This document shows, piece by piece, positions 16,928 through 64,000 of a stretch of DNA of 64,000 nt. The position numbers and the translations under genes were made by a program. The notes beneath the pieces were generated by a model that ran no database searches, had not been told where the DNA came from, and worked only from the letters and a program-made list of their open reading frames with translations. Location of the stretch: NCBI RefSeq assembly GCF_041886205.1, contig NZ_CP169029.1, one strand, 5' to 3'. Numbering within the stretch: the stretch's first letter is position 1; the number at the start of each line of letters is the position of its first letter. This DNA comes from Escherichia coli. Lineage in GTDB: Bacteria > Pseudomonadota > Gammaproteobacteria > Enterobacterales > Enterobacteriaceae.

Positions 16928-16941
16928 TGCTCACCTCTCAA

Positions 16942-16961
16942 CACTGGTAAAGTATACAGTG
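16942..16961 (-). promoter_or_regulatory. LexA (SOS) box of the dinB promoter
   Basis: Reverse strand reads CACTGTATACTTTACCAGTG (CTGT-N8-ACAG consensus) about 15-35 bp upstream of the dinB start codon. Confidence 0.75.
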
Positions 16962-16997
16962 ATTTCAGGGTTTGAGAAATGCGTAAAGATTCAGCAT

Positions 16998-17690: not shown

Positions 17691-17759
17691 GCCATTGAAA
17701 ATCGACTGCCCGTGCAGCGCGGCGATAATGCTTTCACGCTCGGATTTACTGACGCTGTT

Positions 17760-19467: not shown

Positions 19468-19479
19468 GTATCCGGCATT

Positions 19480-19784
<305 letters not shown>

Positions 19785-19790
<6 letters not shown>

Positions 19791-20282
19791 AATGATACGC
19801 TCGCCAGCATTTATATCCGTTACGTCCCCCGCCCAATCGATGGGATATAACCCTCGCGCGACATCGCGATGGAACGTTGAGAATGGCCAATCACTCACTT
19901 GCTTTACCCAACCATGCTTTACTGGATTTATATAAATATAATCAACATGATGCCTATAATCTTTGGTATTGCGGATGGCGTGCTCCCAAAAACGTGGTTG
20001 CCAGATATTTTTCAATCCACAAGCATGGGTAAATTGCTTTTTAATTTCCCGCCAGCGCGAGGAAAAATCATCATCGCCTTCAGGTAATGTCCAGATACAG
20101 TGCATATGCTCTGGCAAAACGACCCAGGCGTTGATTTCAAAAGGCCTGTCTCGCTTAACTTTAATAATGGCGTGACGGAGCATCTGGTACTGGGTGGTCA
20201 AGAGTTGGCTTCGACGATTGCGTAAATTCACCGTGAAAAACCAGGTTCCCCCCTTGATGTAATAACGACGATATTCAGACAT
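19785..20282 (-). CDS. rayT: REP-associated tyrosine transposase (RayT/TnpA-REP)
   Basis: 165 aa MSEYRRYYIKGGTWFFTVNLRNRR...; IS200/IS605-like HUH fold (...HMHCIW...); flanked on both sides by REP elements. Confidence 0.85.
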
Positions 20283-20372
20283 GGCGACTCCTTTTTCTCA
20301 ACGGTAAGAAGAAAAGGAAAGGTCGGTAATGAGGTGATGGAATAACAGGAAAGCGGCTCGCAAAAACGCACA

Positions 20373-21216
<844 letters not shown>

Positions 21217-21507
21217 AAACCGGCTGAATGAAGGTGAGAATTTTAAAAGACCGGAGGAGTAAACGGGATTATTAATTGCTTATTTGCATATTACTATTGA
21301 GGTTTCATAATCTTAGGAAATAAATGATACATGCGCTTTTCGGACTATTGAAAACTGCCCCTGTGCTAAATTTGTAAACCCAGCGCCGACAGGCTTGCGT
21401 AAAACTCTTTTGGTGATAATGTGAGCCTTCCAAATCCAGACTATTCCGATTTGGGATCCATTTTGCCGTCCTGGCGTGTGTAACCGTTTTATCAAGGAAT
21501 AAGCAGT

Positions 21508-22248
21508 ATGCGTAAAATCGCATTAATTCTTGCGATGTTGTTGATCCCGTGCGTTTCGTTTGCCGGTTTGCTGGGCAGCAGTAGCTCGACCACGCCAGTG
21601 AGCAAAGAGTATAAGCAGCAGTTGATGGGATCCCCTGTCTACATCCAGATCTTCAAGGAAGAACGTACGCTCGATCTCTACGTCAAAATGGGCGAGCAAT
21701 ATCAACTGCTCGACAGCTATAAAATCTGTAAATATTCCGGCGGCTTAGGGCCAAAACAGCGTCAGGGCGATTTCAAAAGCCCGGAAGGGTTTTATAGCGT
21801 CCAGCGTAATCAGTTAAAACCAGACAGCCGTTACTACAAAGCGATTAATATTGGTTTCCCCAATGCCTATGACCGTGCGCATGGTTATGAAGGGAAATAC
21901 CTGATGATCCACGGCGATTGTGTTTCCATCGGCTGCTACGCAATGACCAATCAGGGTATTGATGAGATCTTCCAGTTCGTTACTGGTGCGCTGGTGTTTG
22001 GTCAGCCGAGCGTGCAAGTGAGTATTTACCCGTTCCGCATGACCGACGCCAATATGAAGCGCCATAAATATTCCAACTTTAAGGACTTCTGGGAGCAACT
22101 GAAGCCGGGTTACGACTACTTTGAGCAAACCCGTAAGCCACCGACCGTTTCTGTGGTCAATGGTCGTTACGTGGTCAGCAAGCCGTTAAGCCACGAAGTT
22201 GTGCAGCCACAACTGGCATCAAACTACACGCTCCCCGAGGCAAAATAA
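21508..22248 (+). CDS. yafK: L,D-transpeptidase-fold periplasmic protein YafK
   Basis: 246 aa with signal peptide [19 protein letters not shown] and YkuD-like core (...[15 protein letters not shown]...). Confidence 0.85.
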
Positions 22249-22986
22249 GCGCCATTCGCCTGGCATAATCTTTTGCCAGGTTTCATTGCCCGTCAGCGGC
22301 TGTGTTGCAATCACCGTGACCACATCATTCGGTGTGGTCTGCGAGCTGAAGTCGATTTCCACATCCTGATCCAGCAACGTTGCCACGCCAAACGGCGCGC
22401 GGCGGGTGATCCAGTGTAAATTAGTCGAGCAATACGCCATTACATAGCGCCCGTCAGAAAGCAGCATATTGAAAACGCCCTTCTGCCGCAGTTCATCCGC
22501 CAGTGAGGCGATATATTTAAACACTGCCGCCATGTTGCCCGGTGTACGCGGGTAACGCTGCGTTAATTTATGCAGCAGCCAGCAGAAGGCTTTTTCGCTG
22601 TCGGTTTCGCCTACCGGGCGGAAGTTGCCGGTTTCCAGTAATTTGTAGCCCGTCAGTTGTCCGTTATGGGCATAAGTCCAGTTACGCCCCCATAACTCGC
22701 GGGTAAATGGGTGAGTATTTTCCAGCGCCACCTCGCCCCGATTAGCCTGGCGAATATGAGCCACCACCGAACAGGATTTTATCGGGTAGTCCTGGACAAG
22801 TTTGGCGATGGGGGAATTAAAGCTGGGTTGTGGATCTTTAAATGTGCGACAGCCTTTACCTTCGTAAAAGGTAATGCCCCAGCCATCTTTATGTGGCCCG
22901 GTTCCACCACCACGCTGTACAAGTCCGGTGAAACTAAAGCAGATATCGGTAGGGACGTTGGCGCTCATCCCGAGCAATTCGCACAT
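22219..22986 (-). CDS. yafJ: Class-II glutamine amidotransferase-like protein YafJ
   Basis: Product from [19 protein letters not shown]... (N-terminal nucleophile Cys after Met); 3' end overlaps the 3' end of convergent yafK. Confidence 0.8.
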
Positions 22987-23049
22987 GGGTAACCTCCACA
23001 ACAGCGGGAGCGCATGGCCCCCGGCGAAGATTGATTTAAGAATTTTCAG

Positions 23050-23191
<142 letters not shown>

Positions 23192-23195
<4 letters not shown>

Positions 23196-23770
23196 TTAAC
23201 CATCTCTTTTTCAATTAACTGGATCAGGATATGGATCACTTTAATGTGAATCTCCTGAATGCGGTCGGCATAACCAAAGTGCGGTACGCGAATTTCGATA
23301 TCCGCCGTGCCAGCCATTTTGCCGCCGTCTTTACCGGTCAGGGTGATCACTTTCATCCCCTTCTCACGCGCCGCTGCGATCGCTTTGATCACGTTTGCAG
23401 AGTTACCGGAGGTGGAGATCCCCAGCAGTACATCGCCTTCGCGACCTACCGCTTCAACGTAGCGGGAGAAAATATCATTGAAACCGAAATCATTACCGAC
23501 GCAGGAAATATGACTAACGTCAGAAATAGCAATCGCCGGGTAGCCCGGACGGTTTTCACGGTAGCGACCGGTCAACTCTTCGGCAAAGTGCATAGCGTCG
23601 CAATGGGAACCGCCGTTGCCGCAGGAAAGCACTTTGCCACCGGCTTTAAAGCTGTCTGCTAACAGGACCGCCGCGCGCTGAATGGCGTGAATATTGGCGT
23701 CATCTTTTAAAAAGTTAGCCAGCGTTTCCGCCGCTTCGTTCAGTTCGTTACGAATAAGATCCTGGTACAT
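23192..23770 (-). CDS. gmhA: Phosphoheptose isomerase (sedoheptulose-7-phosphate isomerase)
   Basis: 192 aa [66 protein letters not shown]... (SIS domain). Confidence 0.95.
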
Positions 23771-24009
23771 GAGGATATCCTTCAGCATAAATGTAATAGA
23801 CAAAATGCAGTGTACCGGATACCGCCAAAAGCGAGAAGTACGGGCAGGTGCTATGACCAGGACTTTTTGACCTGAAGTGCGGATAAAAACAGCAACAATG
23901 TGAGCTTTGTTGTAATTATATTGTAAACACATTGCTAAATGTTTTTACATCCACTACAACCATATCATCACAAGTGGTCAGACCTCCTACAAGTAAGGGG
24001 CTTTTCGTT

Positions 24010-26454
24010 ATGATGATTTTGAGTATTCTCGCTACGGTTGTCCTGCTCGGCGCGTTGTTCTATCACCGCGTGAGCTTATTTATCAGCAGTCTGATTTTGC
24101 TCGCCTGGACAGCCGCCCTCGGCGTTGCTGGTCTGTGGTCGGCGTGGGTACTGGTGCCTCTGGCCATTATCCTCGTGCCATTTAACTTTGCGCCTATGCG
24201 TAAGTCGATGATTTCCGCGCCGGTATTTCGCGGTTTCCGTAAGGTGATGCCGCCGATGTCGCGCACTGAGAAAGAAGCGATTAATGCGGGCACCACCTGG
24301 TGGGAGGGCGACTTGTTCCAGGGCAAGCCGGACTGGAAAAAGCTGCATAACTATCCGCAGCCGCGCCTGACCGCCGAAGAGCAAGCGTTTCTCGACGGCC
24401 CGGTAGAAGAAGCCTGCCGGATGGCGAATGATTTCCAGATTACTCATGAGCTGGCGGATCTGCCGCCGGAGTTGTGGGCGTACCTTAAAGAGCATCGCTT
24501 CTTCGCGATGATTATCAAAAAAGAGTACGGCGGACTGGAGTTCTCAGCTTATGCCCAGTCTCGCGTGCTGCAAAAACTCTCCGGCGTGAGCGGGATCCTG
24601 GCGATTACCGTCGGCGTGCCGAACTCATTAGGCCCGGGCGAACTGTTGCAACATTACGGCACTGACGAGCAGAAAGATCACTATCTGCCGCGTCTGGCGC
24701 GTGGTCAGGAGATCCCCTGCTTTGCACTGACCAGCCCGGAAGCGGGTTCCGATGCGGGCGCGATTCCGGACACCGGGATTGTCTGCATGGGCGAATGGCA
24801 GGGCCAGCAGGTGCTGGGGATGCGTCTGACCTGGAACAAACGCTACATTACGCTGGCACCGATTGCGACCGTGCTTGGGCTGGCGTTTAAACTCTCCGAC
24901 CCGGAAAAATTACTCGGCGGTGCAGAAGATTTAGGCATTACCTGTGCGCTGATCCCAACCACCACGCCGGGCGTGGAAATTGGTCGTCGCCACTTCCCGC
25001 TGAACGTACCGTTCCAGAACGGACCGACGCGCGGTAAAGATGTCTTCGTGCCGATCGATTACATCATCGGCGGGCCGAAAATGGCCGGGCAAGGCTGGCG
25101 GATGCTGGTGGAGTGCCTCTCGGTAGGCCGCGGCATCACCCTGCCTTCCAACTCAACCGGCGGCGTGAAATCGGTAGCGCTGGCAACCGGCGCGTATGCT
25201 CACATTCGCCGTCAGTTCAAAATCTCTATTGGTAAGATGGAAGGGATTGAAGAGCCGCTGGCGCGTATTGCCGGTAATGCCTACGTGATGGATGCTGCGG
25301 CATCGCTGATTACCTACGGCATTATGCTCGGCGAAAAACCTGCCGTGCTGTCGGCTATCGTTAAGTATCACTGTACCCACCGCGGGCAGCAGTCGATTAT
25401 TGATGCGATGGATATTACCGGCGGTAAAGGCATTATGCTCGGGCAAAGCAACTTCCTGGCGCGTGCTTACCAGGGCGCACCGATTGCCATCACCGTTGAA
25501 GGGGCTAACATTCTGACCCGCAGCATGATGATCTTCGGACAAGGAGCGATTCGTTGCCATCCGTACGTGCTGGAAGAGATGGAAGCGGCGAAGAACAATG
25601 ACGTCAACGCGTTCGATAAACTGTTGTTCAAACATATCGGTCACGTCGGTAGCAACAAAGTTCGCAGCTTCTGGCTGGGCCTGACGCGCGGTTTAACCAG
25701 CAGCACGCCAACCGGCGATGCCACTAAACGCTACTATCAGCACCTGAACCGCCTGAGCGCCAACCTCGCCCTGCTTTCTGATGTCTCGATGGCTGTGCTG
25801 GGCGGCAGCCTGAAACGTCGCGAGCGCATCTCGGCCCGTCTGGGGGATATTTTAAGCCAGCTCTACCTCGCCTCTGCCGTGCTGAAGCGTTATGACGACG
25901 AAGGCCGTAATGAAGCCGACCTGCCGCTGGTGCACTGGGGCGTACAAGATGCGCTGTATCAGGCTGAACAGGCGATGGATGATTTACTGCAAAACTTCCC
26001 GAACCGCGTGGTTGCCGGGCTGCTGAATGTGGTGATCTTCCCGACCGGACGTCATTATCTGGCACCTTCTGACAAGCTGGATCATAAAGTGGCGAAGATT
26101 TTACAAGTGCCGAACGCCACCCGTTCCCGCATTGGTCGCGGTCAGTACCTGACGCCGAGCGAGCATAATCCGGTTGGCTTGCTGGAAGAGGCGCTGGTGG
26201 ATGTGATTGCCGCCGACCCAATTCATCAGCGGATCTGTAAAGAGCTGGGTAAAAACCTGCCGTTTACCCGTCTGGATGAACTGGCGCACAACGCGCTGGT
26301 GAAGGGGCTGATTGATAAAGATGAAGCCGCTATTCTGGTGAAAGCTGAAGAAAGCCGTCTGCGCAGTATTAACGTTGATGACTTTGATCCGGAAGAGCTG
26401 GCGACGAAGCCGGTAAAGTTGCCGGAGAAAGTGCGGAAAGTTGAAGCCGCGTAA
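24010..26454 (+). CDS. fadE: Acyl-CoA dehydrogenase FadE
   Basis: 814 aa from [22 protein letters not shown]...; continuous reading frame with acyl-CoA dehydrogenase core. Confidence 0.95.
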
Positions 26455-26463
26455 ATGAATAAC

Positions 26464-26489
26464 GGAGCCGAAAGGCTCCGTTTCTTTAT
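26464..26489. terminator. Bidirectional rho-independent terminator between convergent fadE and ivy
   Basis: GGAGCCGAAAGGCTCC hairpin followed by a T-rich run (TTTCTTTAT). Confidence 0.6.
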
Positions 26490-26496
26490 CCGCTAA

Positions 26497-26970
26497 TTAT
26501 TTAAAATTAAAGCCATCCGGATGGTTTTCCAGGCTGCCGGTCAACGCCGCGAACAACACCGTTTTACCATCAATCGAAAGCGCATCGTTCACATTCAGCC
26601 AGGTGAGTTTCTCTTGCGACGTTTTCTCATCAATAGTCGAGAACAGCCCCGTCATCTGATTAGATTTCTCGGACCACATCACAGCGATACGTTGCGAGCC
26701 ACAGTCATGCGGTTTGCACGCGCTCATCACCTGATACGTCTCATCTCCCAACGTTACGGTTTGTGCGGGAGTATAAGTACCGCCTTTCATCACCCAGGCA
26801 GGCAGCTTATGCCCTTGTACCATCTGATTAAATGCAGCTTTGGTGGTTTCGCCCTTTGCAAGGCTGCTAATGGTTAAATCATCCTGCGCCATTGCACTGG
26901 TGGCGATGACCAGAGCGGCGACTGTCGTTATTGCCTTAAACATCATTCCTCCCGAGCTTATCCTGCCCAT
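26497..26970 (-). CDS. ivy: Inhibitor of vertebrate lysozyme (periplasmic)
   Basis: 157 aa with signal peptide (...MMFKAITTVAALVIATSAMAQDD...) and the conserved CKPHDCG motif. Confidence 0.85.
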   Translation of the reverse strand: MGRISSGGMMFKAITTVAALVIATSAMAQDDLTISSLAKGETTKAAFNQMVQGHKLPAWVMKGGTYTPAQTVTLGDETYQVMSACKPHDCGSQRIAVMWSEKSNQMTGLFSTIDEKTSQEKLTWLNVNDALSIDGKTVLFAALTGSLENHPDGFNFK

Positions 26971-27123
26971 GTTATTAACCTCCTAAAGCCTGGCGATAAC
27001 ACGATAATTTGCAAATCAGATATTTCCAATATCAGCATTTGTTATCAATTTATTCTGCGCTAAGGCAACTGCCTGATAAGGTGTTAAAGTTATAAAACCC
27101 TTCGCATAAAGGAGTTGTACACC

Positions 27124-27891
27124 GTGCCTGGTTTGAAGATTACGCTTTTGCAGCAACCACTGGTGTGGATGGATGGTCCTGCCAACCTGCGTCATTTTGA
27201 TCGTCAACTGGAAGGTATTACCGGGCGCGATGTGATCGTTCTACCGGAGATGTTTACCAGCGGCTTTGCCATGGAAGCGGCAGCTTCGTCGCTAGCACAA
27301 GATGACGTAGTGAACTGGATGACAGCTAAGGCGCAGCAGTGCAATGCGCTGATTGCAGGCAGTGTTGCATTACAAACGGAGTCTGGTTCGGTTAACCGCT
27401 TTTTGCTGGTTGAGCCGGGCGGCACGGTACATTTTTATGATAAGCGTCATCTGTTCCGCATGGCAGATGAGCATCTACATTATAAAGCGGGCAATGCGCG
27501 AGTGATTGTGGAATGGCGCGGCTGGCGTATTTTGCCGCTGGTGTGCTACGACTTACGTTTTCCTGTGTGGTCGCGCAATCTCAACGATTATGACCTCGCC
27601 CTGTACGTCGCCAACTGGCCTGCTCCGCGCTCTCTGCACTGGCAGGCATTGCTGACGGCCCGCGCGATTGAGAATCAGGCGTATGTGGCGGGATGCAATC
27701 GCGTCGGCAGCGATGGCAACGGCTGCCATTATCGCGGTGACAGCCGGGTGATTAATCCACAAGGCGAGATTATCGCTACTGCCGACGCGCATCAGGCAAC
27801 GCGCATTGATGCCGAGCTGTCGATGGCGGTGTTAAGGGAATATCGCGATAAGTTTCCGGCATGGCGGGATGCGGATGAGTTTAGGTTGTAG
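27124..27891 (+). CDS. yafV: Nitrilase-superfamily omega-amidase YafV
   Basis: Carbon-nitrogen hydrolase catalytic-triad context (...EMFTSGF..., ...KRHLF..., ...LVCYDLRFP...); probable GTG start at 27124. Confidence 0.85.
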   Translation: MPGLKITLLQQPLVWMDGPANLRHFDRQLEGITGRDVIVLPEMFTSGFAMEAAASSLAQDDVVNWMTAKAQQCNALIAGSVALQTESGSVNRFLLVEPGGTVHFYDKRHLFRMADEHLHYKAGNARVIVEWRGWRILPLVCYDLRFPVWSRNLNDYDLALYVANWPAPRSLHWQALLTARAIENQAYVAGCNRVGSDGNGCHYRGDSRVINPQGEIIATADAHQATRIDAELSMAVLREYRDKFPAWRDADEFRL

Positions 27892-31422: not shown

Positions 31423-34400
31423 CTATTGTCGCATCCAACTGGCCTGGTCAATCGACGCATCAAGTGGCAATGTCTCAATTGCATCGGCGGCCCCATTATG
31501 AGCTCCGCCAACAATAGCATCCATGGCATAACCGGGCTGGTAGGCGCTGTTAGTAATGCGGTCTGCAGCAATCAATCCAGGTACACCAGATACGGCATAA
31601 ATTAGTCCACCTGATGTCCATATTTCGATCGCATCTAGCCCCATTGGGTCTATCAAACTGCACCGGATTTCAGCGGATACTGATACAAATTCCATCCCCC
31701 CTTCAGCCCAATCGGATCCTGAGTGATATACCTCCCCTGCAGCGGGTCATAATAGCGGTGGCGGTTGTAATACAGGCCGGACTCCTCATCATACTGCTGC
31801 CCCGGCAGGCGGATAAGCTGCTGCAGGCTGATGCGGGTTCTCTTCATTCAGCAGGTTGCCCCATTCATCGTATTCTGCGCACCACGCTGTTGCCCCTTCC
31901 GTGCTGATAAGCGCCAGCGGCAGGCCGCGATGGTCGCAGTGGTACAGGTGGATTTTTCGCGCCGGCGTGTACACCGGGTCCATCTGGTTTTGCATCTGCT
32001 CCACCGTCAGGCCGCACGATGCCAGCCAGCGGCGGCTTTCCTCACTCACCCGGTCAGCCAGGATTTCACTTTCCAGCCGGTCGAGCATCTGCACCAGCAC
32101 CGGCGGGAACACCACACTGCCACCGTCTTCGCCGCCGGACTGCTGAAGGGTATCCGCCAGGCTGCGGCGCTGCGTTTTCGCCTGCTCACCGGTGGCGGTT
32201 TCAACCCTGATGAGTGGCGTGAAGCTCCCCGGCTGATAAATCGTCTGGATGCGGGTCCTGTCGTTCTGTATCGTGGTCAGCCGGTCGCCGTCCCAGCCGT
32301 ACCAGGTCACTTGCGGTTTCCGTGACAGCGACATCCAGCCCGTCAGGTCCCGTTCACGCCGCCACACCCGTTTTGCCACCCTGCGGCCCAGCGGGTCGTA
32401 AAGATAGCGACTTTCGACCAGCGGCTCTGCATATTGTGTCCGCGTGTAGTGCACCAGCCGGTGCTGACTGTCGTAATGGTACCGGTGGGTGCGCTCATCA
32501 TCCGTGCGGATAACCCCTTCCGGGATGAGGTCGGTTTTCTCCGTCAGCCTGCCGTGACGGTCATACCGGTAAAGATAGTGCGCGTCACGGGCGATACGGT
32601 TATCCGGCCACATGCTGAGGGTGCTGTCCGGGTGCAGCTCCGGGTCGGGCAGGCGGTTACCTGCCGGGTCTGTGGCATACGGGATGCGGATATCCAGATT
32701 CGCTGCGGTGGTGTGAACGCTGGTCAGCCTGCCGGTGGTGCTGTAGCTGTAACTCCGGGTCTGGCGCGGGCTGCTGATGCGGATGAGTTCGCCGTTGTCG
32801 TTCCAGGTGTAATCGCGGTCATACAGCAGGCTGTTCAGGTGCTGGCTCTGTAACTGCCCGGCAGGGGTGTAAGCGGTGGTGAGTTCATTAACGGCCGAAG
32901 CTGCGCAGCGTTTCCCGGTGCAGGCGGTCGCGGGTGTACTCCACCAGCGGTGTGTCGCCGAGTTTCATGCCTGCCAGGTAACCGCTGCCGTAGGTCAGCC
33001 ATTCCACGGCGGGCAGGCTGTCCGGTATACAGCGGTTCGCCAGCCCCTGCGCGTTGTACGCATGTCTGGTCTCATGCTGCCAGAGCAGTGCTTCCGTCTG
33101 CGGGTGATGCACCGTCTGACGTTCACCGGTCAGGCGGCCTTTATCATCATACCCGTAGTGCACCGTCACCCGGTGCCCTTCGCTGATATGGCTGATGTCT
33201 GTCAGCCAGCCGCGTGTCGTCATACTGCCACCGCTCTGCCGGTTTCACCCTTCACGGTGCGGTGCGTGAGGCGGTCTGCTTCGTCATAGTGCCAGTGGGT
33301 GACCAGCCCCTCATCCTCACTGCTGGATGAGTTTGCCGGTCAGGTCGTGGTGATAACGCTGTGTGCGGCCGTCAAAGCCGGTTTCCTGTATCGAGCCGGT
33401 CAAGCACATCGTAACGGAAGGTGGTGTGGCTGCCGTTTTCACTGGTCAGGCGGATGACCCGTCCGGCAGCATCGTATTCCATACTGCGCGTCAAGCCCGC
33501 CCTGCGTGGTACAGACGGCCTTTCCCGCGCGCATCGTACTGTGTCCCGTTTCTGCTGCCGTCCGGGGCAATAACGGCGGTCAGGTCACCGGCGGCGTTGT
33601 ATTCATACCGCGTTTCATGGCCCTGCGTGTCTTTCACCGAGCAGTTAACTGTCCACGGCTGTCGTATGCGCGGTACTGGCTCATGCCCTTCCTCGCGGTG
33701 CACCGCCGTCATCTGACCGAAACGGTCATGGTCATAGCGGGTCGTGGTAACCGGAACAGTCAGTGAAGGTCAGCAACTGACCGTAACGGCTCCACGTCAT
33801 GGTTTTCCGGTACTGCCCGTCGCATCCGTCCGTTGTCGCAGGGAAGCTCACTGTGCGCGGATTATCATAACGGTAGCGGGTGATATCGCCGTCAGGGGCG
33901 AGTCTCCTGAATCAGACGTCCGTATTCATCATATTCCCGGCGCATTTCCAGCCCGTCCTGGCCCGGTAGCTGACGTTAACTGGTTGTGGTCGTTATAGTG
34001 AAACGCCGATGCCCTGCCATCCGGCGTGGTGATGCGCGTGATGAGCGCCGCGACACCACATCCGGGCTGTACTCTGTCTGTCCGGCCTGCGGCATCCGTC
34101 TGTGCCTTAAGCCTGCCCACCGCATCAAACTCGACTCTGCGTGACGCTGCCGTCCGCGTGTTCCTTTTTCACCACCCGCTTCAGCCCGGCTTCGCCCTGC
34201 GTGTGCAGCACTTCACGGCGGTTCAGGCTGTCGGTGATGGTGATGCGGTCCTTCTCATACTGATAGCGTGTAGCTCCAGAGCCTGCCGGGTTGAGCTGCT
34301 TCGTCACCCGCCCGGTCACTCGTCGTACCGGTAGCGGATTTCCGGCCGGCCCGCGTAACGGTGCGCCACCATCCGGCCCCGGTGTTGCATCATCGTAAGT

Positions 34401-44840: not shown

Positions 44841-46121
44841 ATGCCGGAAGAGAAACTACAGACGCTTTCATTGCAGGTCATTAACGGCAGTGAGCTGGAA
44901 AGCGGACGGGCGGCGCGCTGTCTGTTCACACAGCAGGGAAATGTCGGCCATGGCCCCGAATGCCACTGGTCGGTACAGGATCGTCAGCAGAGCATTCCGG
45001 CCCAGGCTTTTACCGTTATCCTGCACGATGGCACATTTTGTCTGCGCCCGCAGACGGCACAACTGTGGCTGAATCAGGCAAAAGTCACAGCAACATCAGA
45101 CCTAATACAGTTGCGCCAGGGCGATGAGATCCAGATCGGACGGCTGATGGTGAGGGTTCATCTGAACCGGGGAGATATTCCCCATTACGATGAGGAAATG
45201 GCCACTCCCGAAACCATCGTTACCAATCGCGATATGCTCACGGATACCCTGCTATCAACGGAGGGTACGCCACACTATCCGGGAATGACTCACCGGCACC
45301 AACTTGCAGACACCGTGGTAAACGGTTTTTCTGCCGATCCACTCCAGGCACTTCAGTCCGAAAGCCTGATTACCACGGGCGATCCGCTTTCAGGCATTGC
45401 GGCTGTCCGGCCATCGGCACCGCTGTCCGATCCGGCAAGTAATGGGGGGATCAATACTCCGTTTATGGATCTGCCGCCCATTTATGCCAGCCCCGGCGAT
45501 CGTAATGACGACGTCTCTGCGGCAGAAATGGCGCAACGCCACCTTGCGGTCACCCCCTTACTGCGCGGTCTTGGCGGCTCGCTTACCATGAGCAATTCCG
45601 ACGATGCGGATGATTTTCTGGAGGAGGCCGGACGAACGTTACAGGCCGCAATAAAAGGTCTGCTCGATTTGCAGCAGCAGCGTAACAGCCTCTCAGACAA
45701 ACATTTGCGCCCGCTGGAAGATAACCCGCTGCGCCTGAACATGGATTACGCCACCGCGCTCGACGTAATGTTTGCCGAAGGTAAAAGCCCGGTACATCTG
45801 GCGGCTCCCGCCGCCGTCAGTGAAAGCCTGCGCAATGTCCGCCACCACGAAGAAGCTAACCGGGCAGCGATTGTGGAGTCGCTTCGTGTCCTGCTGGATG
45901 CTTTCTCACCACAAAATCTGCTGCGCCGCTTTGTGCAGTACCGCCGCAGCCATGAACTGCGCCAGCCGCTGGATGATGCCGGAGCATGGCAAATGTACAG
46001 CCATTATTACGAAGAACTGGCCTCCGATCGCCAGCAGGGGTTTGAGATGCTGTTTAACGAGGTCTACGCCCAGGTCTATGACCGGGTGCTTCGTGAAAAA
46101 CAGCGGGAGCCGGAAGCATGA
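44841..46121 (+). CDS. tagH: T6SS FHA-domain protein TagH/Fha, reading frame intact
   Basis: Continuous ~427-aa ORF; N-terminal FHA-like segment (...LSLQVINGSELESGRAARCLF...LRPQTAQLWLNQAKVTA...GDEIQIGRLMVRV); position between tssG and tssJ; stop overlaps the tssJ start. Confidence 0.7.
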   Translation: MPEEKLQTLSLQVINGSELESGRAARCLFTQQGNVGHGPECHWSVQDRQQSIPAQAFTVILHDGTFCLRPQTAQLWLNQAKVTATSDLIQLRQGDEIQIGRLMVRVHLNRGDIPHYDEEMATPETIVTNRDMLTDTLLSTEGTPHYPGMTHRHQLADTVVNGFSADPLQALQSESLITTGDPLSGIAAVRPSAPLSDPASNGGINTPFMDLPPIYASPGDRNDDVSAAEMAQRHLAVTPLLRGLGGSLTMSNSDDADDFLEEAGRTLQAAIKGLLDLQQQRNSLSDKHLRPLEDNPLRLNMDYATALDVMFAEGKSPVHLAAPAAVSESLRNVRHHEEANRAAIVESLRVLLDAFSPQNLLRRFVQYRRSHELRQPLDDAGAWQMYSHYYEELASDRQQGFEMLFNEVYAQVYDRVLREKQREPEA

Positions 46122-46642
46122 ACAGGAAGGCGTTTCTGGCCTGCGTGCTGATGTGCGTCATATTAACCGGCTGCGAAACGGCGAAAAAAATCAGTGAGGT
46201 GATCAAAAACCCGGATATCCAGGTCGGGAGCCTGAAGGAGCAACCTTCGGAAATAACCGTCACCCTGCTGACCGAACCGGACACGCATACCAATGCGGAA
46301 GGTGAATCAGCCGCCGTGGATGTGCAACTGGTGTACCTGACTGACGACTCAAAATTGCTGGCAGCCGACTATGACCAGATAGCCAGTACGCCGCTACCGG
46401 ATGTGCTGGGTAAAAACTATATCGACCACCAGGATTTCAACCTGTTGCCGGACACCATCAAAACCCTGCCGCCGGTAAAGCTGGATGAGAAAACGCAGTT
46501 TATTGGTGTCGTGGCCGATTTCTCCGATGACCAGGCCACTGAATGGGAACAAATCGAGACGGTGGAAGGAACCGGCCACCATTACCGCCTGCTGGTGCAT
46601 GTACGTCAAAGCAGCATCGAAATGAAAAAAGAGGATGAATAA
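46118..46642 (+). CDS. tssJ: T6SS outer-membrane lipoprotein TssJ, reading frame intact
   Basis: 174 aa; lipoprotein signal MNRKAFLACVLMCVILTGC (lipobox LTGC); ATGA overlap with tagH; followed immediately by tssK. Confidence 0.8.
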   Translation: MNRKAFLACVLMCVILTGCETAKKISEVIKNPDIQVGSLKEQPSEITVTLLTEPDTHTNAEGESAAVDVQLVYLTDDSKLLAADYDQIASTPLPDVLGKNYIDHQDFNLLPDTIKTLPPVKLDEKTQFIGVVADFSDDQATEWEQIETVEGTGHHYRLLVHVRQSSIEMKKEDE

Positions 46643-52265: not shown

Positions 52266-53679
52266 ATGGCAATGGACTTACGCGATCCGAATGTCTGGAT
52301 ATCGCACCTGCTGGAAAACCTGCCGGAAGAGAAACTGGCATCGGCGCTGAAAGATGACAACCCGAACTGGGAGTATATCGACGGCGAAATCGTCAAGCTG
52401 GGATCGCTGGCCCACAGTCAACTGGATATCCCGGAACTCCAGCGCCGGGGGCTGGTCATTCTGGCTTCGGAGAGTAAGGATTTTCGTCTGCTGGCGCATC
52501 TGCTGAGAACCCTGCAACACGCCGGTGATCCTCACTCCCGCATTGCGCCTGCTGGCGCTGTATGTGGAGCATTACTGGGCGGTGGCTGCGCCGCAGAATA
52601 TGGCGCATAAAAAACGCTTTGCCAGCCAGGTCATTAAACGCTTTGAAACAGGTATTGAAGTTTTTTCACAGAACGCCGCCACAGCGCAGCGCGATGCGCT
52701 GTCAGGGGAACTGGCAAAACTGGCGCAATGCTGGCAGTCACATAACGCCCCGGAACTGGCACAGGCTACTGATGATCTTTTTGCCCCGTACCAGCGTGCG
52801 TTTAATCGTGCGGCACCGGTTCCTGTCCCCACTCCGGCGGCCTCCGGTAGTTCACCACAGACCACCGCCACGTCTGAAAGCGGCGTGACGCAACCCAGTG
52901 CTCCGGCTCCCCAAATCGTCATCGACAGTCACGACGACAAAGCCTGGCGCGACACGCTGTTAAAAGTGGCGGCCATTTTATGTGAACGCCAGCCGGATTC
53001 ACCGCAGGGCTACCGTCTGCGCCGCCATGCGCTTTGGCAGAACATCACCAGTACGCCCCAGGCGGAAAGCGATGGCCGTACTCCACTGGCTGCGGTCTCC
53101 GCCGATATGGTGGCAGATTACCATGCTCAGCTCGGTAGTGCCGATATGGCGCTGTGGCAGCAGGTGGAGAAAAGCGTACTGCTGGCTCCTTACTGGCTGG
53201 ATGGTCACTGCCTTTCTGCACAGACGGCGCTGCGTCTGGGTTACAAACAGGTGGCAGACGCCATCCGCGATGAGGTCATCCGCTTCCTTGAGCGTCTGCC
53301 CCAGCTTACCGGGCTGCTGTTTAATGACCACACACCGTTTATCAGTGAGCAGACGAAACAATGGCTGGCAGCTTCGCCCGACGCCAAAGTTGCACCGGTT
53401 GCGCAAATCGGTGAGGAATCGAAGGCAGCCAGAGCCTGTTTTGCTGAGCAGGGTCTGGAGGCGGCGCTGCGATATCTGGACATGCTACCCGAAGGCGATC
53501 CCCGCGATCAGTTTCACCGCCAGTACCTTGCCGCACAGTTGACGGAAGAGGCGGGGCTGGTACAGCTTGCGCAGCAGCAGTACCGGATGTTGTTCAGGAT
53601 GGGATTGCAGATGATGGTGGCAGACTGGGAGCCGTCCCTGCTTGAGCAGCTAGAACAAAAATTCACGGCAGAACAATAA
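52266..53679 (+). pseudogene. tssA: tssA (ImpA-N-domain protein), one frameshift near 52540
   Basis: MAMDLRDPNVWISHLLENLPEEKLASALKDDNPNWEYIDGEIVKLGSLAHSQLDIPELQRRG... continues in a second frame (ORF 52525..53679). Confidence 0.65.
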
Positions 53680-53697: not shown

Positions 53698-56600
53698 GTG
53701 TTCAGATTACCAACACCCCGACTACTCAGCGGACTCAAATCAGCCCTGCGACCGGCGATGCCCCGGTTTAAAGTCTCTGCTTTCTGGCTGCTGATACTGG
53801 CGTGGATTTTTCTGCTGGTGTGGATCTGGTGGAAAGGCCCGACGTGGACGCTGTATGAAGAACAGTGGCTCTAAACCACTGGCGAACCGCTGGCTGGCAA
53901 CGGCGGCGTGGGGGATTATTGCCCTGATGTGGCTTACCGTCCGGGTGATGAAGCGCCTGCAACAGCTTGAAAAACAGCAAAAACAACAGCGCGAGGAAGC
54001 CGTTCGATCCGCTCAGTGTGGAACTGAACGCCCAGCAGCGTTACCTCGACCGCTGGCTGCTGCGCCTGCAACGCCATCTCGACAACCGCCGTTTCCTGTG
54101 GCAATTGCCGTGGTATATGGTCATCGGCCCGGCGGGCAGTGGCAAAACGACACTGCTGCGCGAGGGGTTTCCGTCAGACATTATTTATGCCCCGGAGGGC
54201 TCGCGCGGCGCAGAACAACGCCTGTACCTTACGCCCCATGTCGGTAAACAGGCGGTGATCTTTGATATCGACGGCACACTCTGCGCTCCCGCTGATGCGG
54301 ATATCCTGCATCGCCGTCTGTGGGAACATACCCTCGGCTGGCTGAAGGAAAAGCGCGCGCGCCAGCCCGCTGAACGGGATTATTCTGACACTCGATTTAC
54401 CCGATCTGCTGACCGCAGACAAGCGCCGCCGTGAGTATCTGCTACAGACGCTGCGCAGCCGCTTGCAGGATATACGCCAGCATCTTCACTGCCAGCTACC
54501 GGTTTACGTGGTACTGACCCGGCTTGATTTATTGCAGGGTTTTGCCGCCCTGTTCCAGTCCCTGAACAGACAGGATCGTGATGCGATTCTGGGTGTCACG
54601 TTCACCCGCCGTGCCCATGAAAATGATGACTGGCGAACAGAGTTGAATGCTTTCTGGCAGACATGGGTGGATCGAATGAATCTGGCGTTGCCGGATCTGA
54701 TGGTCGCTCAGACTCACACCCGCGCGTCTTTATTCAGTTTTTCCCGCCAGATGCAGGGAAGCCGTGAACCCCTGGTGTCACTGCTTGAAGGTCTGCTTGA
54801 CGGCGAAAATATGAACGTGATGCTGCGTGGTGTCTATCTCACCTCGTCACTGCAACGCGGCCAGATGGATGACATCTTTACCCAGTCCGCCGCCCGCCAG
54901 TACCGGCTGGGCAATAACCCACTGGCGTCCTGGCCCCTGGTGGACACCGCGCCTTATTTCACCCGCAGCCTGTTCCCGCAGGCATTACTCGCAGAGCCTA
55001 ATCTGGCAACGGAGAGCCGTGACTGGCTGATGCGTTCCCGTCGCCGCCTGACGGTTTTCTCTGCCACAGGCGGCGTGGCGGCACTGCTGCTCATCACCGG
55101 CTGGCATCACTATCACAACGGTAACTATCAGTCCGGCATCACCGTGCTTAAGCAGGCCAAAGCCTTTATGGACGTGCCGCCTCCGCAGGGGAAAGACGAC
55201 TACGGCAACCTGCAACTGCCGCTGCTGAACCCGGTACGCGATGCCACACTGGCCTATGGCGACTGGGGCGACCGCAGCCGTCTGGCCGATATGGGACTGT
55301 ACCAGGGACGACGTATCGGGCCTTATGTGGAACAGACCTATCTGCAACTACTAGAGCAGCGTTACCTGCCCTCGCTGTTTAACGGGCTGGTCAAAGCGAT
55401 GAACGCCGCGCCGCCGGAGAGTGAGGAAAAACTCGCCGTGCTGCGCGTGATGCGAATGCTGGAGGACAAAAGCGGACGCAATAATGAGGTGGTGAAGCAG
55501 TATATGGCAAAACGCTGGAGCGAAAAAGTTCCACGGCCAGCGTGATATCCAGGCACAACTGATGTCCCATCTTGACTACGCGCTGGCTCATACTGACTGG
55601 CATGCAGAGCGTCAGGCGGGCGACGGTGACGCCATCAGCCGCTGGATGCCATATGACAAGCCCGTGGTATCAGCACAGAAAGAACTGAGCAAACTGCCTG
55701 TCTACCAGCGGGTTTACCAGAGCCTGAAAACGCGGGCGCTGGGCGTTCTTACCTGCTGACCTCAATCTGCGTGACCAGGTAGGGCCAACCTTTGACCAGG
55801 TCTTTACATCTGCCGATGACAACAAACTGGTTGTTCCACAGTTTCTTACCCGTTACGGCCTGCAAAGCTATTTTGTAAAACAGCGCGATGAACTGGTTGA
55901 ACTGACGGCAATGGATTCCTGGGTACTCAACCTCACCCGCAGTGTGAAATACAGTGACGCCGACCGCGCGGAAATCCAGCGCCAGTTGACCGAGCAGTAT
56001 ATCAGCGACTACACCGCTACCTGGCGAGCCGGGATGTGACAATCTGAATATCCGCAATTTTGAGTCCATTGGACAACTGACCGGGGCGCTGGAGCAGGTT
56101 ATCAGCGGCGACCAGCCTTTGCAGCGGGCGCTGACTGTGTTGCGTGACAACACACAGCCAGGCGTCTTTTCTGAAAAACTTTCTGCCAAAGAACGGGATG
56201 AGGCTCTGGCAGAACCGGACTACCAGTTGCTCACCCGCCTCGGGCATGAATTTGCCCCGGAAAACAGTACTCTGGCAGTACAGAAAGACAAAGAAAGCAC
56301 GATGCAGGCCGTGTATCAGCAACTCACCGAGTTGCACCGCTATCTGCTGGCAATTCAGAACGCGCCTGTACCAGGGAAATCGGCGCTGAAAGCCGTGCAG
56401 TTGCGGCTTGATCAGAACAGCAGCGATCCGATATTCGCCACCCGCCAGATGGCAAAGACACTGCCTGCTCCGCTCAACCGCTGGGTTGGCAGACTGGCTG
56501 ACCAGGCCTGGCATGTGGTGATGGTGGAGGCCGTTCACTATATGGAAGTGGACTGGCGCGACAGCGTGGTGAAACCGTTTAACGAGCAACTGGCAAATAA

Positions 56601-57228
56601 CTATCCGTTTAATCCGCGTTCTGCACAGGATGCCTCACTGGATGCCTTCGAACGCTTCTTTAAACCGGATGGCATACTGGATACCTTCTACCAGCAGAAC
56701 CTGAAGCTGTTTATCGACAATGACCTGAGTCTGGAGGATGGCGATAACAGCGTCATTATTCGCGAAGATATTATTGCGCAACTGAAAACCGCGCAGAAAA
56801 TCCGTGACATCTTCTTCAGTAAACAGAACGGTCTGGGAACATCCTTTGCCGTGGAAACGGTATCGCTCTCCGGCAACAAACGCCGCAGTGTACTGAACCT
56901 TGACGGCCAGTTAGTCGATTACAGCCAGGGGCGCAACTATACCGCCCATCTGGTCTGGCCTAACAATATGCGCGAAGGCAACGAAAGCAAACTGACGCTC
57001 ATCGGCACCAGCGGCAACGCGCCGCGCAGTATCAGCTTCAGCGGGCCGTGGGCGCAGTTCCGCCTTTTCGGGGCCGGACAACTGACCGGAGTTCAGGATG
57101 GCAACGTTACCGTGCGCTTTAGCGTGGACGCTGGCGCGATGACCTACCGTGTGCATACCGACACTGAGGATAACCCATTCAGCGGTGGGTTATTCAGCCA
57201 GTTTGGTCTGTCAGACACACTGTACTGA
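53698..57228 (+). pseudogene. tssM: tssM (IcmF-like membrane-complex component), about five frameshifts
   Basis: GTG start with N-terminal transmembrane helices (...FWLLILAWIFLLVWIWW...); Walker A ...MVIGPAGSGKTTLL...; pieces in ORFs 53967..54434, 54463..55545, 55562..55759, 56119..57228. Confidence 0.75.
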
Positions 57229-57239
57229 GGAGGCAGGGA

Positions 57240-58593
57240 TGGATAGTAACGGACTGACACAAACTATCGTTACCGGCAGTGACCCGCGCGGGGCTGCCGG
57301 AATTCAGTGCCATCCGCGAGGAAATAAACAAAGCCAGCCACCCGTCACAGCCTGAGCTGAACTGGAAACTGGTGGAGTCGCTGGCACTGGCGATTTTTAA
57401 AGCCAACGGTGTGGATTTACACACCGCCACCTACTAGACGCTTGCCCGGACACGGACACAGGGACTGGCGGGATTCTGCGAAGGTGCGGAACTGCTGGCG
57501 GCAATGGTAAGCCACGACTGGGATAAGTTCTGGCCGCAGGGCGGCCCGGCGCGTACTGAAACGCCGGACTGGTTTAACTCCCGAACCGGCAATATTCTGC
57601 GTCAGCAAATCTCCTTTGCGGAATCCGACCTACCACTGATCTACCGCACAGAGCGGGCATTGCAGCTTATCTGCGATAAGCTCCAGCAGGTGGAACTGAA
57701 GCGCGTTCCGCGCGTGGAGAATCTGCTCTATATTTATGCAGAACACGCGTAAACGGCTTGAACCCCAGACTGAAGAGTAACACTGAGAACGCCGCACAGA
57801 CCACGGTCAGAACGCTGATTTATGCCCCGGAAACACAGGCATCTTCCACACCAGAAGCGGTAGTGCCTCCCCTGCCCGGCCTGCCTGAGATGAAAGTGGA
57901 AGTGCGCAGTCTGACAGAGAATCCCCCACAGGCCAGTGTGATAAAGCAAGGCAGTACGGTAAGAGGGTTTATCGCAGGGATCGCCTGTTCAGTGGCTGTC
58001 GCCTCAGCATTGTGGTGGTGGCAGGTCTATCCGGTGCAGCAGCAACTGTTACAGGTTAACGACACCGCTCAGGGCGCAGCAACGGTGTGGATGGCCTCAC
58101 CTGAACTCGAAAACTATGAGCGCAGGCTGCAACAACTTCTTGATACCTCCCGGTACAGCCGCTGGAAACCGGGATGCAGATGATGCGTGTTGCCGACAGT
58201 CGCTGGCCGGAAAGCCTGCAACAGCAACAGGCCTCGACACAATGGAATGAGGCACTCAAAACCCGCGCACAGAGTAGCCCGCAGTTGCGTGGCTGGTTGC
58301 AGACCCGCCAGGACTTACATGCTTTTGCAGATCTAGTGATGCAGCGCGAGAAAGAGGGACTAACCCTTTCCTATATCAAAAATGTCATCTGGCAGGCGGA
58401 GCGGGGACTGGGGCAGGAAACACCCGTTGAGTCTCTGTTGACGCAGTACCAGGATGCCCGTGCGCAGAAGCAGAATACAGATGCGCTGGAAAAACAAATT
58501 AATGAGCGACTCGAAGGCGTGTTAAGCCGCTGGCTGCTGCTGAAGAATAACGTCATGCCAGAGGCGGCAACCGGTACCACGGCCGAAAAATAA
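57240..58593 (+). pseudogene. Unassigned T6SS accessory gene(s) (TagF/VasL-position), fragmented; family not determined
   Basis: ORF pieces 57240..57355, 57504..57752, 57758..58183, 58174..58593 in different frames; lies between tssM and the second hcp. Confidence 0.3.
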
Positions 58594-58616: not shown

Positions 58617-59099
58617 ATGGCAAATATAAGTTATTTATCTTTGAGTGGAGAGACACAAGGGCTGATTTCAGCAGGTTGCTCAACGCTTGATTCTGTCGGA
58701 AACAAAGCGCAGCCAGAACATAAAGATCGAGATCATGGTTTATGCGTTAATGCATTCCATCTCAAGAAGTCAAAATGTCAATCATCATGAATTAATTATC
58801 ACCAAACCGGTTGATAAATCCTCACCATTGCTGGCAAAAGCACTTAGTGACAATGAAAAAATGGCAATATGTGAATTTATACTCTACCGAACCAGTAAAG
58901 CGGGTATTTACCAGCCTTATTATAAAATAAATCTGTCAAAAGCCCGAATATCAAGTATTGATTTTGTCACACCGCATGCTGTCCTGGAAAAGAACTGGAA
59001 CCACAGGAGAGAATTGCCTTTATTTATGAAGATATTTCCTGGGAGCATACGTTAGCCGGTACGAATGCAATGAGTAAATGGCAGGATCGTGTACAGTAA
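58617..59099 (+). pseudogene. hcp: Second Hcp-family gene, two frameshifts
   Basis: MANISYLSLSGETQGLISAGCSTLDSVGN (Hcp N-terminus) then frame loss; middle part ...DKSSPLLAKALSDNEKMAICEFILYRTSKAGIYQPYYKI...; C-terminus ...ISWEHTLAGTNAMSKWQDRVQ* in a third frame. Confidence 0.65.
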
Positions 59100-59142: not shown

Positions 59143-60039
59143 ATGGCTGGTTTAAGGAATAACAACAACACACAGAATGCACAGTGGGCTGATTATGTGG
59201 GTGACATTCTTCGGGGGGCTCAGCCGATAAACCAGCTAGTACCTCAGCACCCTTATCTTAACGACGTCCCACTCATTGATGAGTTAAGGCATCAGAACAC
59301 TCATCATGTTATTCTCTTGACACTTGATGTTGCAAAAAAAATACTCAGCCCAATAACATCATTTGATTACATTCATTTTATCACTACACATCCTTCAGGT
59401 ATAAAAGATACACTCGCCTGGTTAGTTAACGCGGGTAAATTAATGACTGAGTTTGATGACAATGGGAAAATTATATTTAACCTTAATGCCTTAAAGTATA
59501 CAAAAGCAAGTTACTTTGAAATACTTGGAGAGAAATATATAAAAATCACAACATCCAGCCCCTGGCTTTTAGAAAAGCTCGGTAAATATATTTTCTCTTC
59601 ACGAGCGCCTCAAGTTCTGGAACTCGCTATTGGCTGGCGAGGAGCTTTATCTGAATCAATAAAAGGAGTTAAGTTCTGTATCTGGTTTTCAGTAGCCTGG
59701 AGAACCATAGAATTTATTATGAGTTCAGAGCGAGATCTGGTTAATTTTCTTGGCGATTTTTCAATGGATGTGGCCAAAGCAGTTATAGCCGGTGGTGTTG
59801 CAACCGCTATTGGAAGCCTGGCTTCTTTTGCCTGTGTTAGCTTTGGCTTTCCAGTAATTCTTGTCGGAGGAGCAATTTTACTGACAGGGATAGTGTGTAC
59901 AGTTGTTTTAAATGAAATCGATGCTCAATGCCATTTATCAGAAAAATTAAAATATGCAATTAGAGATGGACTAAAACGGCAACAGGAACTTGATAAATGG
60001 AAAAGGGAAAACATGACTCCATTTATGTATGTTCTTTAA
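59143..60039 (+). CDS. Hypothetical protein (~298 aa) with C-terminal Gly/Ala-rich hydrophobic segment; candidate Hcp-linked membrane-targeting effector
   Basis: Intact AT-rich ORF directly after the second hcp; C-terminal AKAVIAGGVATAIGSLASFACVSFGFPVILVGGAILLTGIVCTVVL resembles glycine-zipper membrane-inserting segments. Start chosen at MAGLRNN; the alternative start is 59128. Confidence 0.5.
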   Translation: MAGLRNNNNTQNAQWADYVGDILRGAQPINQLVPQHPYLNDVPLIDELRHQNTHHVILLTLDVAKKILSPITSFDYIHFITTHPSGIKDTLAWLVNAGKLMTEFDDNGKIIFNLNALKYTKASYFEILGEKYIKITTSSPWLLEKLGKYIFSSRAPQVLELAIGWRGALSESIKGVKFCIWFSVAWRTIEFIMSSERDLVNFLGDFSMDVAKAVIAGGVATAIGSLASFACVSFGFPVILVGGAILLTGIVCTVVLNEIDAQCHLSEKLKYAIRDGLKRQQELDKWKRENMTPFMYVL

Positions 60040-60067
60040 CACTCCACCCGTGATATGAGGATTAACC

Positions 60068-61486: not shown

Positions 61487-61816
61487 AATTGGACACTCCC
61501 TCGCCTGTCATAATCATGGTAATGTTTAGCTAACGATTTTTAATTATATACTCCACTTGAATCAGAACAAACAAAAATAACAGTATATATAAATTCATTA
61601 AATCAATAGAAAAATGAAAATCATAACATTCAAATATATTTAAATTGAATGATTCGATAGTATGATTAAATATTAATGATATGGTCTACCATATGTGATT
61701 AACACATTTACAGCATAACAAAACCATAGACCGAAGAAATAGCGGGATTTAAATGCAAAAAAAACCGCAAAATTAAAAATCTTGCGGTTCTCTGAACTCA
61801 TTTTCATGAGTGAATC

Positions 61817-61893
61817 TGGCGGAACGGACGGGACTCGAACCCGCGACCCCCTGCGTGACAGGCAGGTATTCTAACCGACTGAACTACCGCTCC
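61817..61893 (-). tRNA. aspV: tRNA-Asp
   Basis: Reverse complement reads GGAGCGGTAGTTCAGTCGGTTAGAATACCTGCCTGTCACGCAGGGGGTCGCGGGTTCGAGTCCCGTCCGTTCCGCCA (GUC anticodon); located next to dnaQ. Confidence 0.92.
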
Positions 61894-62025
61894 GCGTTGT
61901 GTTCCGTTGGGAACGAGGCGAATATTACGGATTGCCTCGTCCTTCGTCAATGGTTTTTCTCATCTTTTGAATCATTTGCTGCAAAAATCGCCCAAGTCGC
62001 TATTTTTATCGCCTTTTACATGTAT

Positions 62026-62757
62026 TTATGCCCGCCAGAGGCAGCTTCCGCCTTTCTTCTGCACCAGATCGAGACGGGCTTCATGTGCTGCAAGCTCGTC
62101 ATCTGTCGCAAAAACAACGCGTAACTTACTTGCCTGACGTACAATGCGCTGAATTGTTGCTTCACCTTGTTGCTGCTGTGTCTCTCCTTCCATCGCAAAA
62201 GCCATCGACGTTTGACCACCGGTCATCGCCAGATAAACTTCCGCAAGGATCTGGGCATCGAGTAATGCCCCGTGCAGCGTTCGTTTACTGTTATCTATTT
62301 CGTAGCGGGCACATAACGCATCGAGGCTGTTGCGTTTACCGGGAAACATTTTCCTCGCCACCGCAAGGCTATCGGTGACCTTACAGAAGGTATTAGTCTT
62401 CGGAATATCGCGCTTAAGCAACGAGAACTCGTAGTCCATAAAGCCGATATCGAACGCTGCGTTATGGATCACCAACTCCGCGCCGCGGATATAGTCCATG
62501 AACTCATCGGCTACTTCGGCAAACGTGGGCTTATCGAGCAAAAATTCATCGGCAATACCATGTACGCCAAAGGCTTCCGGATCCACCAGCCGATCGGGTT
62601 TGAGATAAACATGGAAGTTATTGCCCGTCAGGCGACGGTTCACCACTTCAACGGCCCCAATCTCAATGATCTTGTGGCCTTCATAGTGCGCACCAATCTG
62701 GTTCATACCGGTGGTTTCGGTATCGAGAACGATCTGGCGTGTAATTGCAGTGCTCAT
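62026..62757 (-). CDS. dnaQ: DNA polymerase III epsilon subunit (3'-5' proofreading exonuclease)
   Basis: Product from [20 protein letters not shown]... (Exo I motif DTETTG), 243 aa. Confidence 0.95.
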
Positions 62758-62821
62758 AGCGGTCATTTATGTCAGACTTGTCATTTTACAGTTCGATTCA
62801 ATTACAGGAAGTCTACCAGAG

Positions 62822-63289
62822 ATGCTTAAACAGGTAGAAATTTTCACCGATGGTTCGTGTCTGGGTAATCCTGGACCTGGGGGTTACGGCGCTATTTTAC
62901 GCTATCGCGGACGCGAGAAAACCTTTAGCGCAGGCTACACCCGCACCACCAACAACCGTATGGAGTTGATGGCCGCTATTGTCGCGCTGGAGGCGTTAAA
63001 AGAACATTGCGAAGTCATTTTGAGTACCGACAGCCAGTATGTCCGCCAGGGTATCACCCAGTGGATCCATAACTGGAAAAAACGTGGCTGGAAAACAGCA
63101 GACAAAAAACCAGTAAAAAATGTCGATCTCTGGCAACGTCTTGATGCTGCATTGGGGCAGCATCAAATCAAATGGGAATGGGTTAAAGGCCATGCCGGAC
63201 ACCCGGAAAACGAACGCTGTGATGAACTGGCTCGTGCCGCGGCGATGAATCCCACACTGGAAGATACGGGCTACCAAGTCGAAGTTTAA
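62822..63289 (+). CDS. rnhA: Ribonuclease HI
   Basis: 155 aa [35 protein letters not shown]...; divergent from dnaQ. Confidence 0.95.
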
Positions 63290-64000
63290 GCCTGTGGTTT
63301 ACGACATTGCCGGGTGGCTCCAACCGCCTGGCGAATTCGTGGCTTGTTTTTACTCTGTTTCATCGGATTTAGCGTTAAAGGAATAGTCCGTTTCCGGGCA
63401 ACAATAAGTTGTAAGCAACCAAGCGCAGGAATATGCGCATTCAATAGTTTTCCTCCGTGTTTGTTCCACGGGAGAACGTGGAAACGGCTGGCGTGTAGCA
63501 CTTCAAAATTCAACAAAGAGAGCCAGTCCAGTTGCCGCATCAGAGTAAACATCCGGCTGTTATAGGGCGAGGTTTTTCGCAATACCGGCACAAGTTTGCG
63601 TAATCCCATTAAACTGATGGGATTGAAGCCACTAATCACCAGCCAGCCATCATCAATCAGTACCCGATCGGCTTCACGTAATAAACGATGCGGATCGGTG
63701 CACCACGGCAATGTATGTGCCAGTAGACAAACATCAACGGATTTATCGGCAAAAGGAAGATGAAGTGGATCCGCCTGCACCTGGACGGGCATTCCTTGCG
63801 CAGAAACATTCACTTGATGAGAAACCGCGCACGCTTCGCAATTGATTTCTGCGCTTAAATTGCCAATCTTAAGCAGATGAAAACCATACATTTTAGTGAA
63901 CCACGGGTTGAGCTGGCGCTCCAGCGCCTTGCGATAAAGCTCTCCCCAGGGCAAATCGCCCCAGCGATCAGGAGCCACGACAGTTTGAGGGACTCTTGCC
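63286..64000 (-). CDS. yafS: SAM-dependent methyltransferase YafS (5' end just beyond window)
   Basis: ...[43 protein letters not shown]...; coding continues to the window edge. Confidence 0.85.

Follow-up and report, generated by a model that had tools for sequence, protein, structure and literature searches.

Class B TssA-like proteins (TagA, for which the name TsmA has been proposed) combine an ImpA_N domain with a region that spans the membrane and, at the C-terminus, a VasL domain, and include V. cholerae VCA0121 and EAEC TagA (PMC6745524, Schneider et al.). They are membrane-localised, curb excess sheath polymerisation and keep the extended sheath held; when TagA is deleted, sheaths become long and bent and detach, and contractions are fewer; its overexpression blocks assembly (PMC6745524). 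For EAEC TagA, a report cited in PMC6745524 has the protein arresting the sheath at its distal end and holding it there; TssA, TssM and TagA together control initiation and termination (PMC7545191, Stietz et al.). In E. coli the aspV T6SS island has been classed as subtype i1 and its VasL protein named impA (PMC5422975), and the island is homologous to the vas cluster of V. cholerae, its EHEC homolog being repressed by H-NS (PMC5363993).

The window analysed here, a 64,000-nt stretch of E. coli contig NZ_CP169029.1, carries an aspV T6SS island with the gene order tssA, tssM, vasL, hcp, in which positions 57239-58593 (plus strand, 1355 nt) can with great confidence be called one gene, a disrupted ortholog of vasL (tagA, 'impA', TsmA). 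Intact orthologs have 1353 nt and encode 450 aa, as in UMNK88, O103:H2 12009 and W; we used the 1353-nt ortholog of UMNK88 (L002:6140-7492) as the frame reference. The gene is known already: vasL is the class B TssA-like accessory gene of the V. cholerae-like T6SS (subtype i1) whose insertion site is the tRNA-Asp gene aspV, and its family, domains, place in the cluster and sheath-anchoring role have been described, with annotated copies in thousands of E. coli genomes. Among 5,426 complete E. coli genomes, a megablast search with 57239-58593 found matches in 2,948, at an identity of at least 99% in 1,906 of them; the best match among these complete genomes is 99.6% identical, and genes bearing the name 'VasL domain-containing protein' match the window copy at 99.5-99.6% DNA identity. 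Every match listed bears that annotation and lies between tssM and an Hcp gene.

Upstream, tssM of 99E2750 (L003:39005-42439) maps onto window positions 53788-57228, and its stop codon, a TGA, can be read at 57226-57228 of the plus strand. A GGAGG Shine-Dalgarno motif follows directly (57229-57233, plus strand), leaving 5 nt before the vasL ATG; this start, at 57239, is one base before the position, 57240, at which an earlier note on this DNA had begun the feature. The vasL stop codon, TAA, is at 58591-58593, and the downstream neighbour is the second hcp (58617-59099, plus strand), itself frameshifted by an extra G at 58729 and a missing A at 58987; the spacers measure 10 nt between tssM and vasL and 23 nt between vasL and hcp. 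The earlier note had suggested that accessory genes might lie between tssM and the second hcp, independent of both, and had named as its counter-case that the stretch is no more than the tssM 3' end or the hcp 5' end. The accessory-gene position stands, and so does the independence, given the gene's own Shine-Dalgarno, start and stop and the two spacers; the counter-case is contradicted by the tssM stop at 57226-57228 and the hcp start at 58617. We found no IcmF or Hcp family matches within 57239-58593, and no Rfam families, notable repeats or long minus-strand ORFs within 56.9-59.2 kb.

Directly after the second hcp, positions 59,143-60,058 encode a conserved 304-aa hypothetical protein (WP_000908052.1 in other strains), whose gene in the window carries an extra T at 60035, near its 3' end. 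It had no NCBIfam match and no precomputed Pfam match; an effector or immunity protein associated with Hcp is one possibility.

The earlier note could not assign the stretch to a family; Pfam does so at both ends, and the name that PGAP gives to the orthologs is 'VasL domain-containing protein'. In the intact ortholog, ImpA_N (PF06812) spans residues 12-113 with 71.3 bits (cut-off 26.9) and the VasL domain (PF12486) residues 292-434 with 82.2 bits (cut-off 27.3). On the plus strand of the window, the remains of ImpA_N (57272-57578) are cut by the first two of five lesions, and the pieces 57291-57434 and 57438-57731, split by a TAG, score 24.0 and 26.1 bits; the VasL domain (58115-58542) is cut by the fifth lesion, and the piece 58174-58590 scores 73 bits to PF12486. 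Between the two domains, a simple hydropathy scan found a single hydrophobic segment, with Kyte-Doolittle values of 1.6-1.7 in 19-residue windows over residues 239-262; its core, GFIAGIACSVAVASALWWWQV (residues 242-262, window positions 57965-58027, plus strand), is a presumed membrane anchor. The locus shows every sequence-level mark of the TagA/VasL family (ImpA_N, hydrophobic segment, VasL domain and T6SS context) save an open frame. Repairing the frame against intact homologs, the check that the earlier note had proposed together with a profile search, supports the identity of the gene: with its five lesions removed, the window vasL encodes 450 aa, differing from the O103:H2 protein only by M108T and L109P.

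Full-length collinearity with a single 450-aa gene settles the choice between one and two genes, which had been left undecided, in favour of one; of the proposed roles, accessory or regulatory, the former holds, in the structural, TagA-class sense, and the latter falls away. Nor is the gene specific to this island type, as had been suggested: V. cholerae VCA0121 has the same architecture (PMC6745524), and a full-length homolog lies by EAEC sci-1. TssA proper was considered and ruled out, with 84.3 bits to TIGR03362 (cut-off 230.1) and 40.1 bits to TIGR03363 (cut-off 160.9). The matches of VasL to these NCBIfam TssA equivalogs cover the N-terminal region only; because they stay far below the cut-offs, and because the island has its own tssA (52266-53679), we take VasL to be a TssA-like paralog rather than TssA. 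Pfam gave no match to the VasJ C-terminal domain in the intact VasL ortholog, and a sequence search of the PDB returned matches to the ImpA_N region only (6rju, 6hs5) and none for the VasL domain.

When the window vasL is aligned with those of UMNK88, 99E2750 and eight further genomes (10 in all), it falls into five frame pieces (57239-57289, 57291-57731, 57733-57768, 57770-58148 and 58149-58593), and an in-frame TAG at 57435-57437 divides the second piece further. This agrees with the earlier description of fragmented, coding-like sequence in at least four frame pieces; in the ORF list, too, the coding signal switches frames along 57239-58593. The first lesion is an extra G at 57290 that turns G3 into G4 (57290-57293), shifts the frame after codon 17 and occurs in none of the 10 other genomes aligned; the second, T>G at 57437, changes TAT (Tyr66) to TAG. 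Two inserted A residues follow, the third lesion at 57732 within TATTTT (codon 164), where it extends no homopolymer, and the fourth at 57769 in CAG-A-CTG (codon 176), likewise a non-homopolymer site. The fifth is the loss of one C from a run of four (C4 to C3, 58149-58151), a -1 frameshift at codon 303. All five are given for the plus strand. Translation from the ATG at 57239 ends after 38 residues, and there is little doubt that the copy is non-coding as written, the full protein not being makeable from it. The window vasL thus belongs to the TagA/VasL family only through its descent, either as a pseudogene or as a copy that was mis-sequenced.

The fourth lesion stands apart from the other four, which are private to the window. 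Among complete E. coli genomes it occurs only in 99E2750, where PGAP marks the gene 'frameshifted'; over 26 kb, the window agrees with 99E2750 at three of the six sites at which that genome and O103 12009 differ, and a coincidence of both position and base by chance would be expected about 1 time in 1,000. Being common to 99E2750, the extra A at 57769 is almost certainly a real, inherited frameshift, to judge from these alignments. The exact 53-mer spanning the third and fourth lesions was absent from GTDB representative genomes and JGI metagenomes. We had also considered that the loss of C at the fifth site might be common to public genomes with the same 139-aa C-terminal ORF, and rejected this when the alignment showed different lesions there. 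The ImpA_N region has two private T>C changes with a spacing of 3 nt, at 57562 and 57565 (the M108T and L109P above), which are found in 0 of the 10 comparison genomes.

The damage is not confined to vasL; it spans the aspV T6SS island, from 27,919 to 61,811 (34 kb), and stops exactly at the island borders. Compared with GCA_020145595.1 (L024), the flanks at 14,010-27,889 (13.9 kb) and 61,817-64,000 (2.2 kb) have 3 and 2 mismatches, respectively, and no indels, and LHM10-1 is 99.9% identical to the window over 61,811-64,000 (L004 comparison). In GCA_020145595.1 and LHM10-1, aspV is occupied by another T6SS, of the i2 type, or by what remains of one, and the window island is closest to O103:H2 12009 and 99E2750; since the closest relatives differ for backbone and island, the two come from different lineages. 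Neither the variant TssJ nor the exact proteins that result from the frameshifts in hcp2, tssA and tssK were found in a collection of 15 billion proteins, in which the VasI and FadE alleles of the window are common. The tssJ frame (46,118-46,642) is intact and has four private substitutions (46285, 46286, 46517 and 46547), three of them transversions and three at first codon positions. Within the island, the rhs core at 31,900-33,300 is 98.7% identical to rhsB/rhsC, which lie at other chromosomal loci, whereas its identity to the rhs usually found in aspV islands is only about 80%; rhs may be a natural mosaic here, or paralogs were mixed in assembly. We had read the 15% divergence at 29-36 kb as extreme decay and abandoned that reading, as part of it is due to this rhsB/rhsC-type core.

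Elsewhere in the window we noted an IS1 copy at 3,185-3,952 (99.2-99.6% identical to IS1 in L020, L025 and L027), a tRNA at 5,462-5,534 and, in the core flank, four Rfam matches to naRNA4 (REP-type) at 19,544-20,458 and 23,104-23,181.

The best explanation overall is probably that the window holds a broken copy of vasL/tagA whose lesions are mostly non-natural. The strongest competing explanation is that all five lesions are genuine, vasL being a naturally decaying, multi-hit pseudogene on an island that has lost its function and is free of selection; this is possible but we consider it unlikely. In its favour, the extra A at 57769 recurs in the isolate 99E2750, and vasL has been hit independently in other isolates by frameshifts, point lesions and large deletions: one genome (L008) has a different -1 frameshift, another (L013) a point change, and four (L009-L012) have large deletions in which only the last 139 vasL codons are kept, these being natural deletions that removed the T6SS core. 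Many 'mutational isoforms' of the island are on record, and in bovine E. coli the aspV T6SS island is described as the most variable region and as one that is often non-functional (PMC5422975). Nearly all other T6SS genes of the window are broken too, the frames being intact only in tagH, tssJ and vasI, and island substitutions (hcp1-tssF) hit the three codon positions evenly, which is what an absence of selection would give, while those in fadE, dnaQ and rnhA fall at third positions.

The spectrum of the damage argues the other way. Bacterial gene decay is deletion-biased, and mutational bias runs from GC to AT, whereas the window, compared with 99E2750 over 37.7-61.8 kb, shows 148 indel events of which 128 are insertions and 20 deletions, and indel events equal or exceed substitutions. 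The inserted bases are random relative to their neighbours: 42% of 112 single-base insertions repeat a neighbouring base, where random insertion expects about 44%, and slippage is therefore not the source of the single-base insertions. Window-specific substitutions in the island run about 3:1 against the known bias (115 AT>GC, 35 GC>AT), compared with 21 and 20 in the right flank; their even spread over codon positions can be counted on this side as well. Indels are also unevenly distributed, with about 16/kb at 38-43.9 kb, 1-5/kb at 47.8-60 kb and about 10/kb at 60.3-61.2 kb, but none in a 3.2-kb block at 44.6-47.8 kb that lies beside neighbours with 1-16 events/kb. Only 0.02% separates the backbone from its nearest relative, against 0.3-3% private change in the island, so neutral decay in situ would have been too fast; and lesion-specific proteins and DNA were missing from the public collections searched.

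The vasL remnants of the deletion variants differ in their surroundings: the 139 codons follow tssB and a 74-aa ORF in three of the genomes (L009, L011 and L012, at about 9,190-10,420) and a fused TssA/TssM remnant in the fourth (L010). Genomes of this kind may explain the wide presence of 'impA' with an adjacent hcp reported in PMC5422975.

Returning to the preferred explanation, we judge it on balance likely that the vasL lesions are mostly non-biological and arose in sequencing, assembly or other handling of the sequence; we base this on the island-wide mutation spectrum. It sits less well with two of the four vasL indels, G3>G4 and C4>C3, which are ordinary homopolymer slips. A low-coverage long-read or mixed-strain consensus could produce such damage, and would jointly explain the clean backbone, the island from another lineage and the wrong-paralog rhs core; in-silico perturbation is a further possible source. 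In practice, the aspV T6SS island of the window is to be treated as non-functional as written, and, most of its frameshifts being unlike natural mutation, conclusions on gene decay drawn from the window would be unsafe without the reads.

Targeted or locally acting hypermutation that inactivated a newly acquired T6SS island would make vasL one of about twenty genes silenced together, but we hold this to be very improbable. It is extremely improbable that the pieces work as split genes, for example an ImpA_N-only protein and a 139-aa VasL-domain protein from an ATG at 58174, or that recoding joins them, as by programmed frameshifting with read-through of the stop. The 139-aa C-terminal ORF does have points in its favour, with gene calls in 133 blocks of a public collection, being all that is left of vasL in the four deletion variants and scoring 73 bits to PF12486; but it lacks both the membrane segment and ImpA_N, has no strong Shine-Dalgarno before 58174, and its supposed partner ends after 17 native codons, so that no ImpA_N protein is possible. 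Recoding, for its part, would need to bypass four shifts and one stop, no shift site is conserved, and every ortholog examined reads straight through. The chance that the stretch holds novel, island-specific accessory or regulatory genes, or is a mere tssM 3' or hcp 5' end, is practically negligible, since all that speaks for it is a location flanked by tssM and hcp, together with the translations left unassigned in the earlier note, against full-length collinearity with an annotated 450-aa gene, Pfam domains at both ends and homologs both in a second T6SS type of E. coli and, as published work describes, in V. cholerae. We likewise rejected the pieces as separate genes or as extensions of tssM or hcp, given their collinearity with one 450-aa ortholog.

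For the intact E. coli i1 protein, we infer a TagA-like function from homology and architecture. As has been shown in work on the TagA proteins of V. cholerae and EAEC, VasL would be seated in the membrane and, on the opposite side of the cell, meet the growing sheath at its distal end, which TssA caps, end sheath polymerisation there and keep the sheath extended until contraction; it would raise the efficiency of the T6SS without being essential to it.

The closest described counterpart is the E. coli i1 VasL itself (WP_000377957.1 in O103:H2 12009; WP_001087741.1 in UMNK88), which occupies the same locus between the same tssM and hcp neighbours, and from which the window copy differs by four frameshifts and one nonsense codon. 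In V. cholerae, vasL presumably lies directly after vasK (tssM), matching the order in the window. V. cholerae TagA (VasL, VCA0121; PMC6745524), likened here by its description, has the same domain plan of ImpA_N, hydrophobic segment and C-terminal PF12486. Its function has been demonstrated in that organism, whereas that of the E. coli i1 protein is transferred by homology. TssA (class A, TsaC, the sheath-assembly cap) has ImpA_N in common with VasL, which differs in having no VasJ domain. In EAEC strain 042, a 455-aa ImpA_N/VasL ORF (L030:34071-35438), which we take to be the published EAEC TagA, belongs to another T6SS type (i2, sci-1) and is separated from the core cluster by about 4 kb instead of following tssM directly. 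PGAP annotates this ORF as three partial pseudogenes (ImpA_N, POTRA and VasL), although it is in fact uninterrupted. It aligns with the intact E. coli VasL over the full length at 28% identity (E = 4e-48), with the ImpA_N domain, the hydrophobic segment and the VasL domain all in register.
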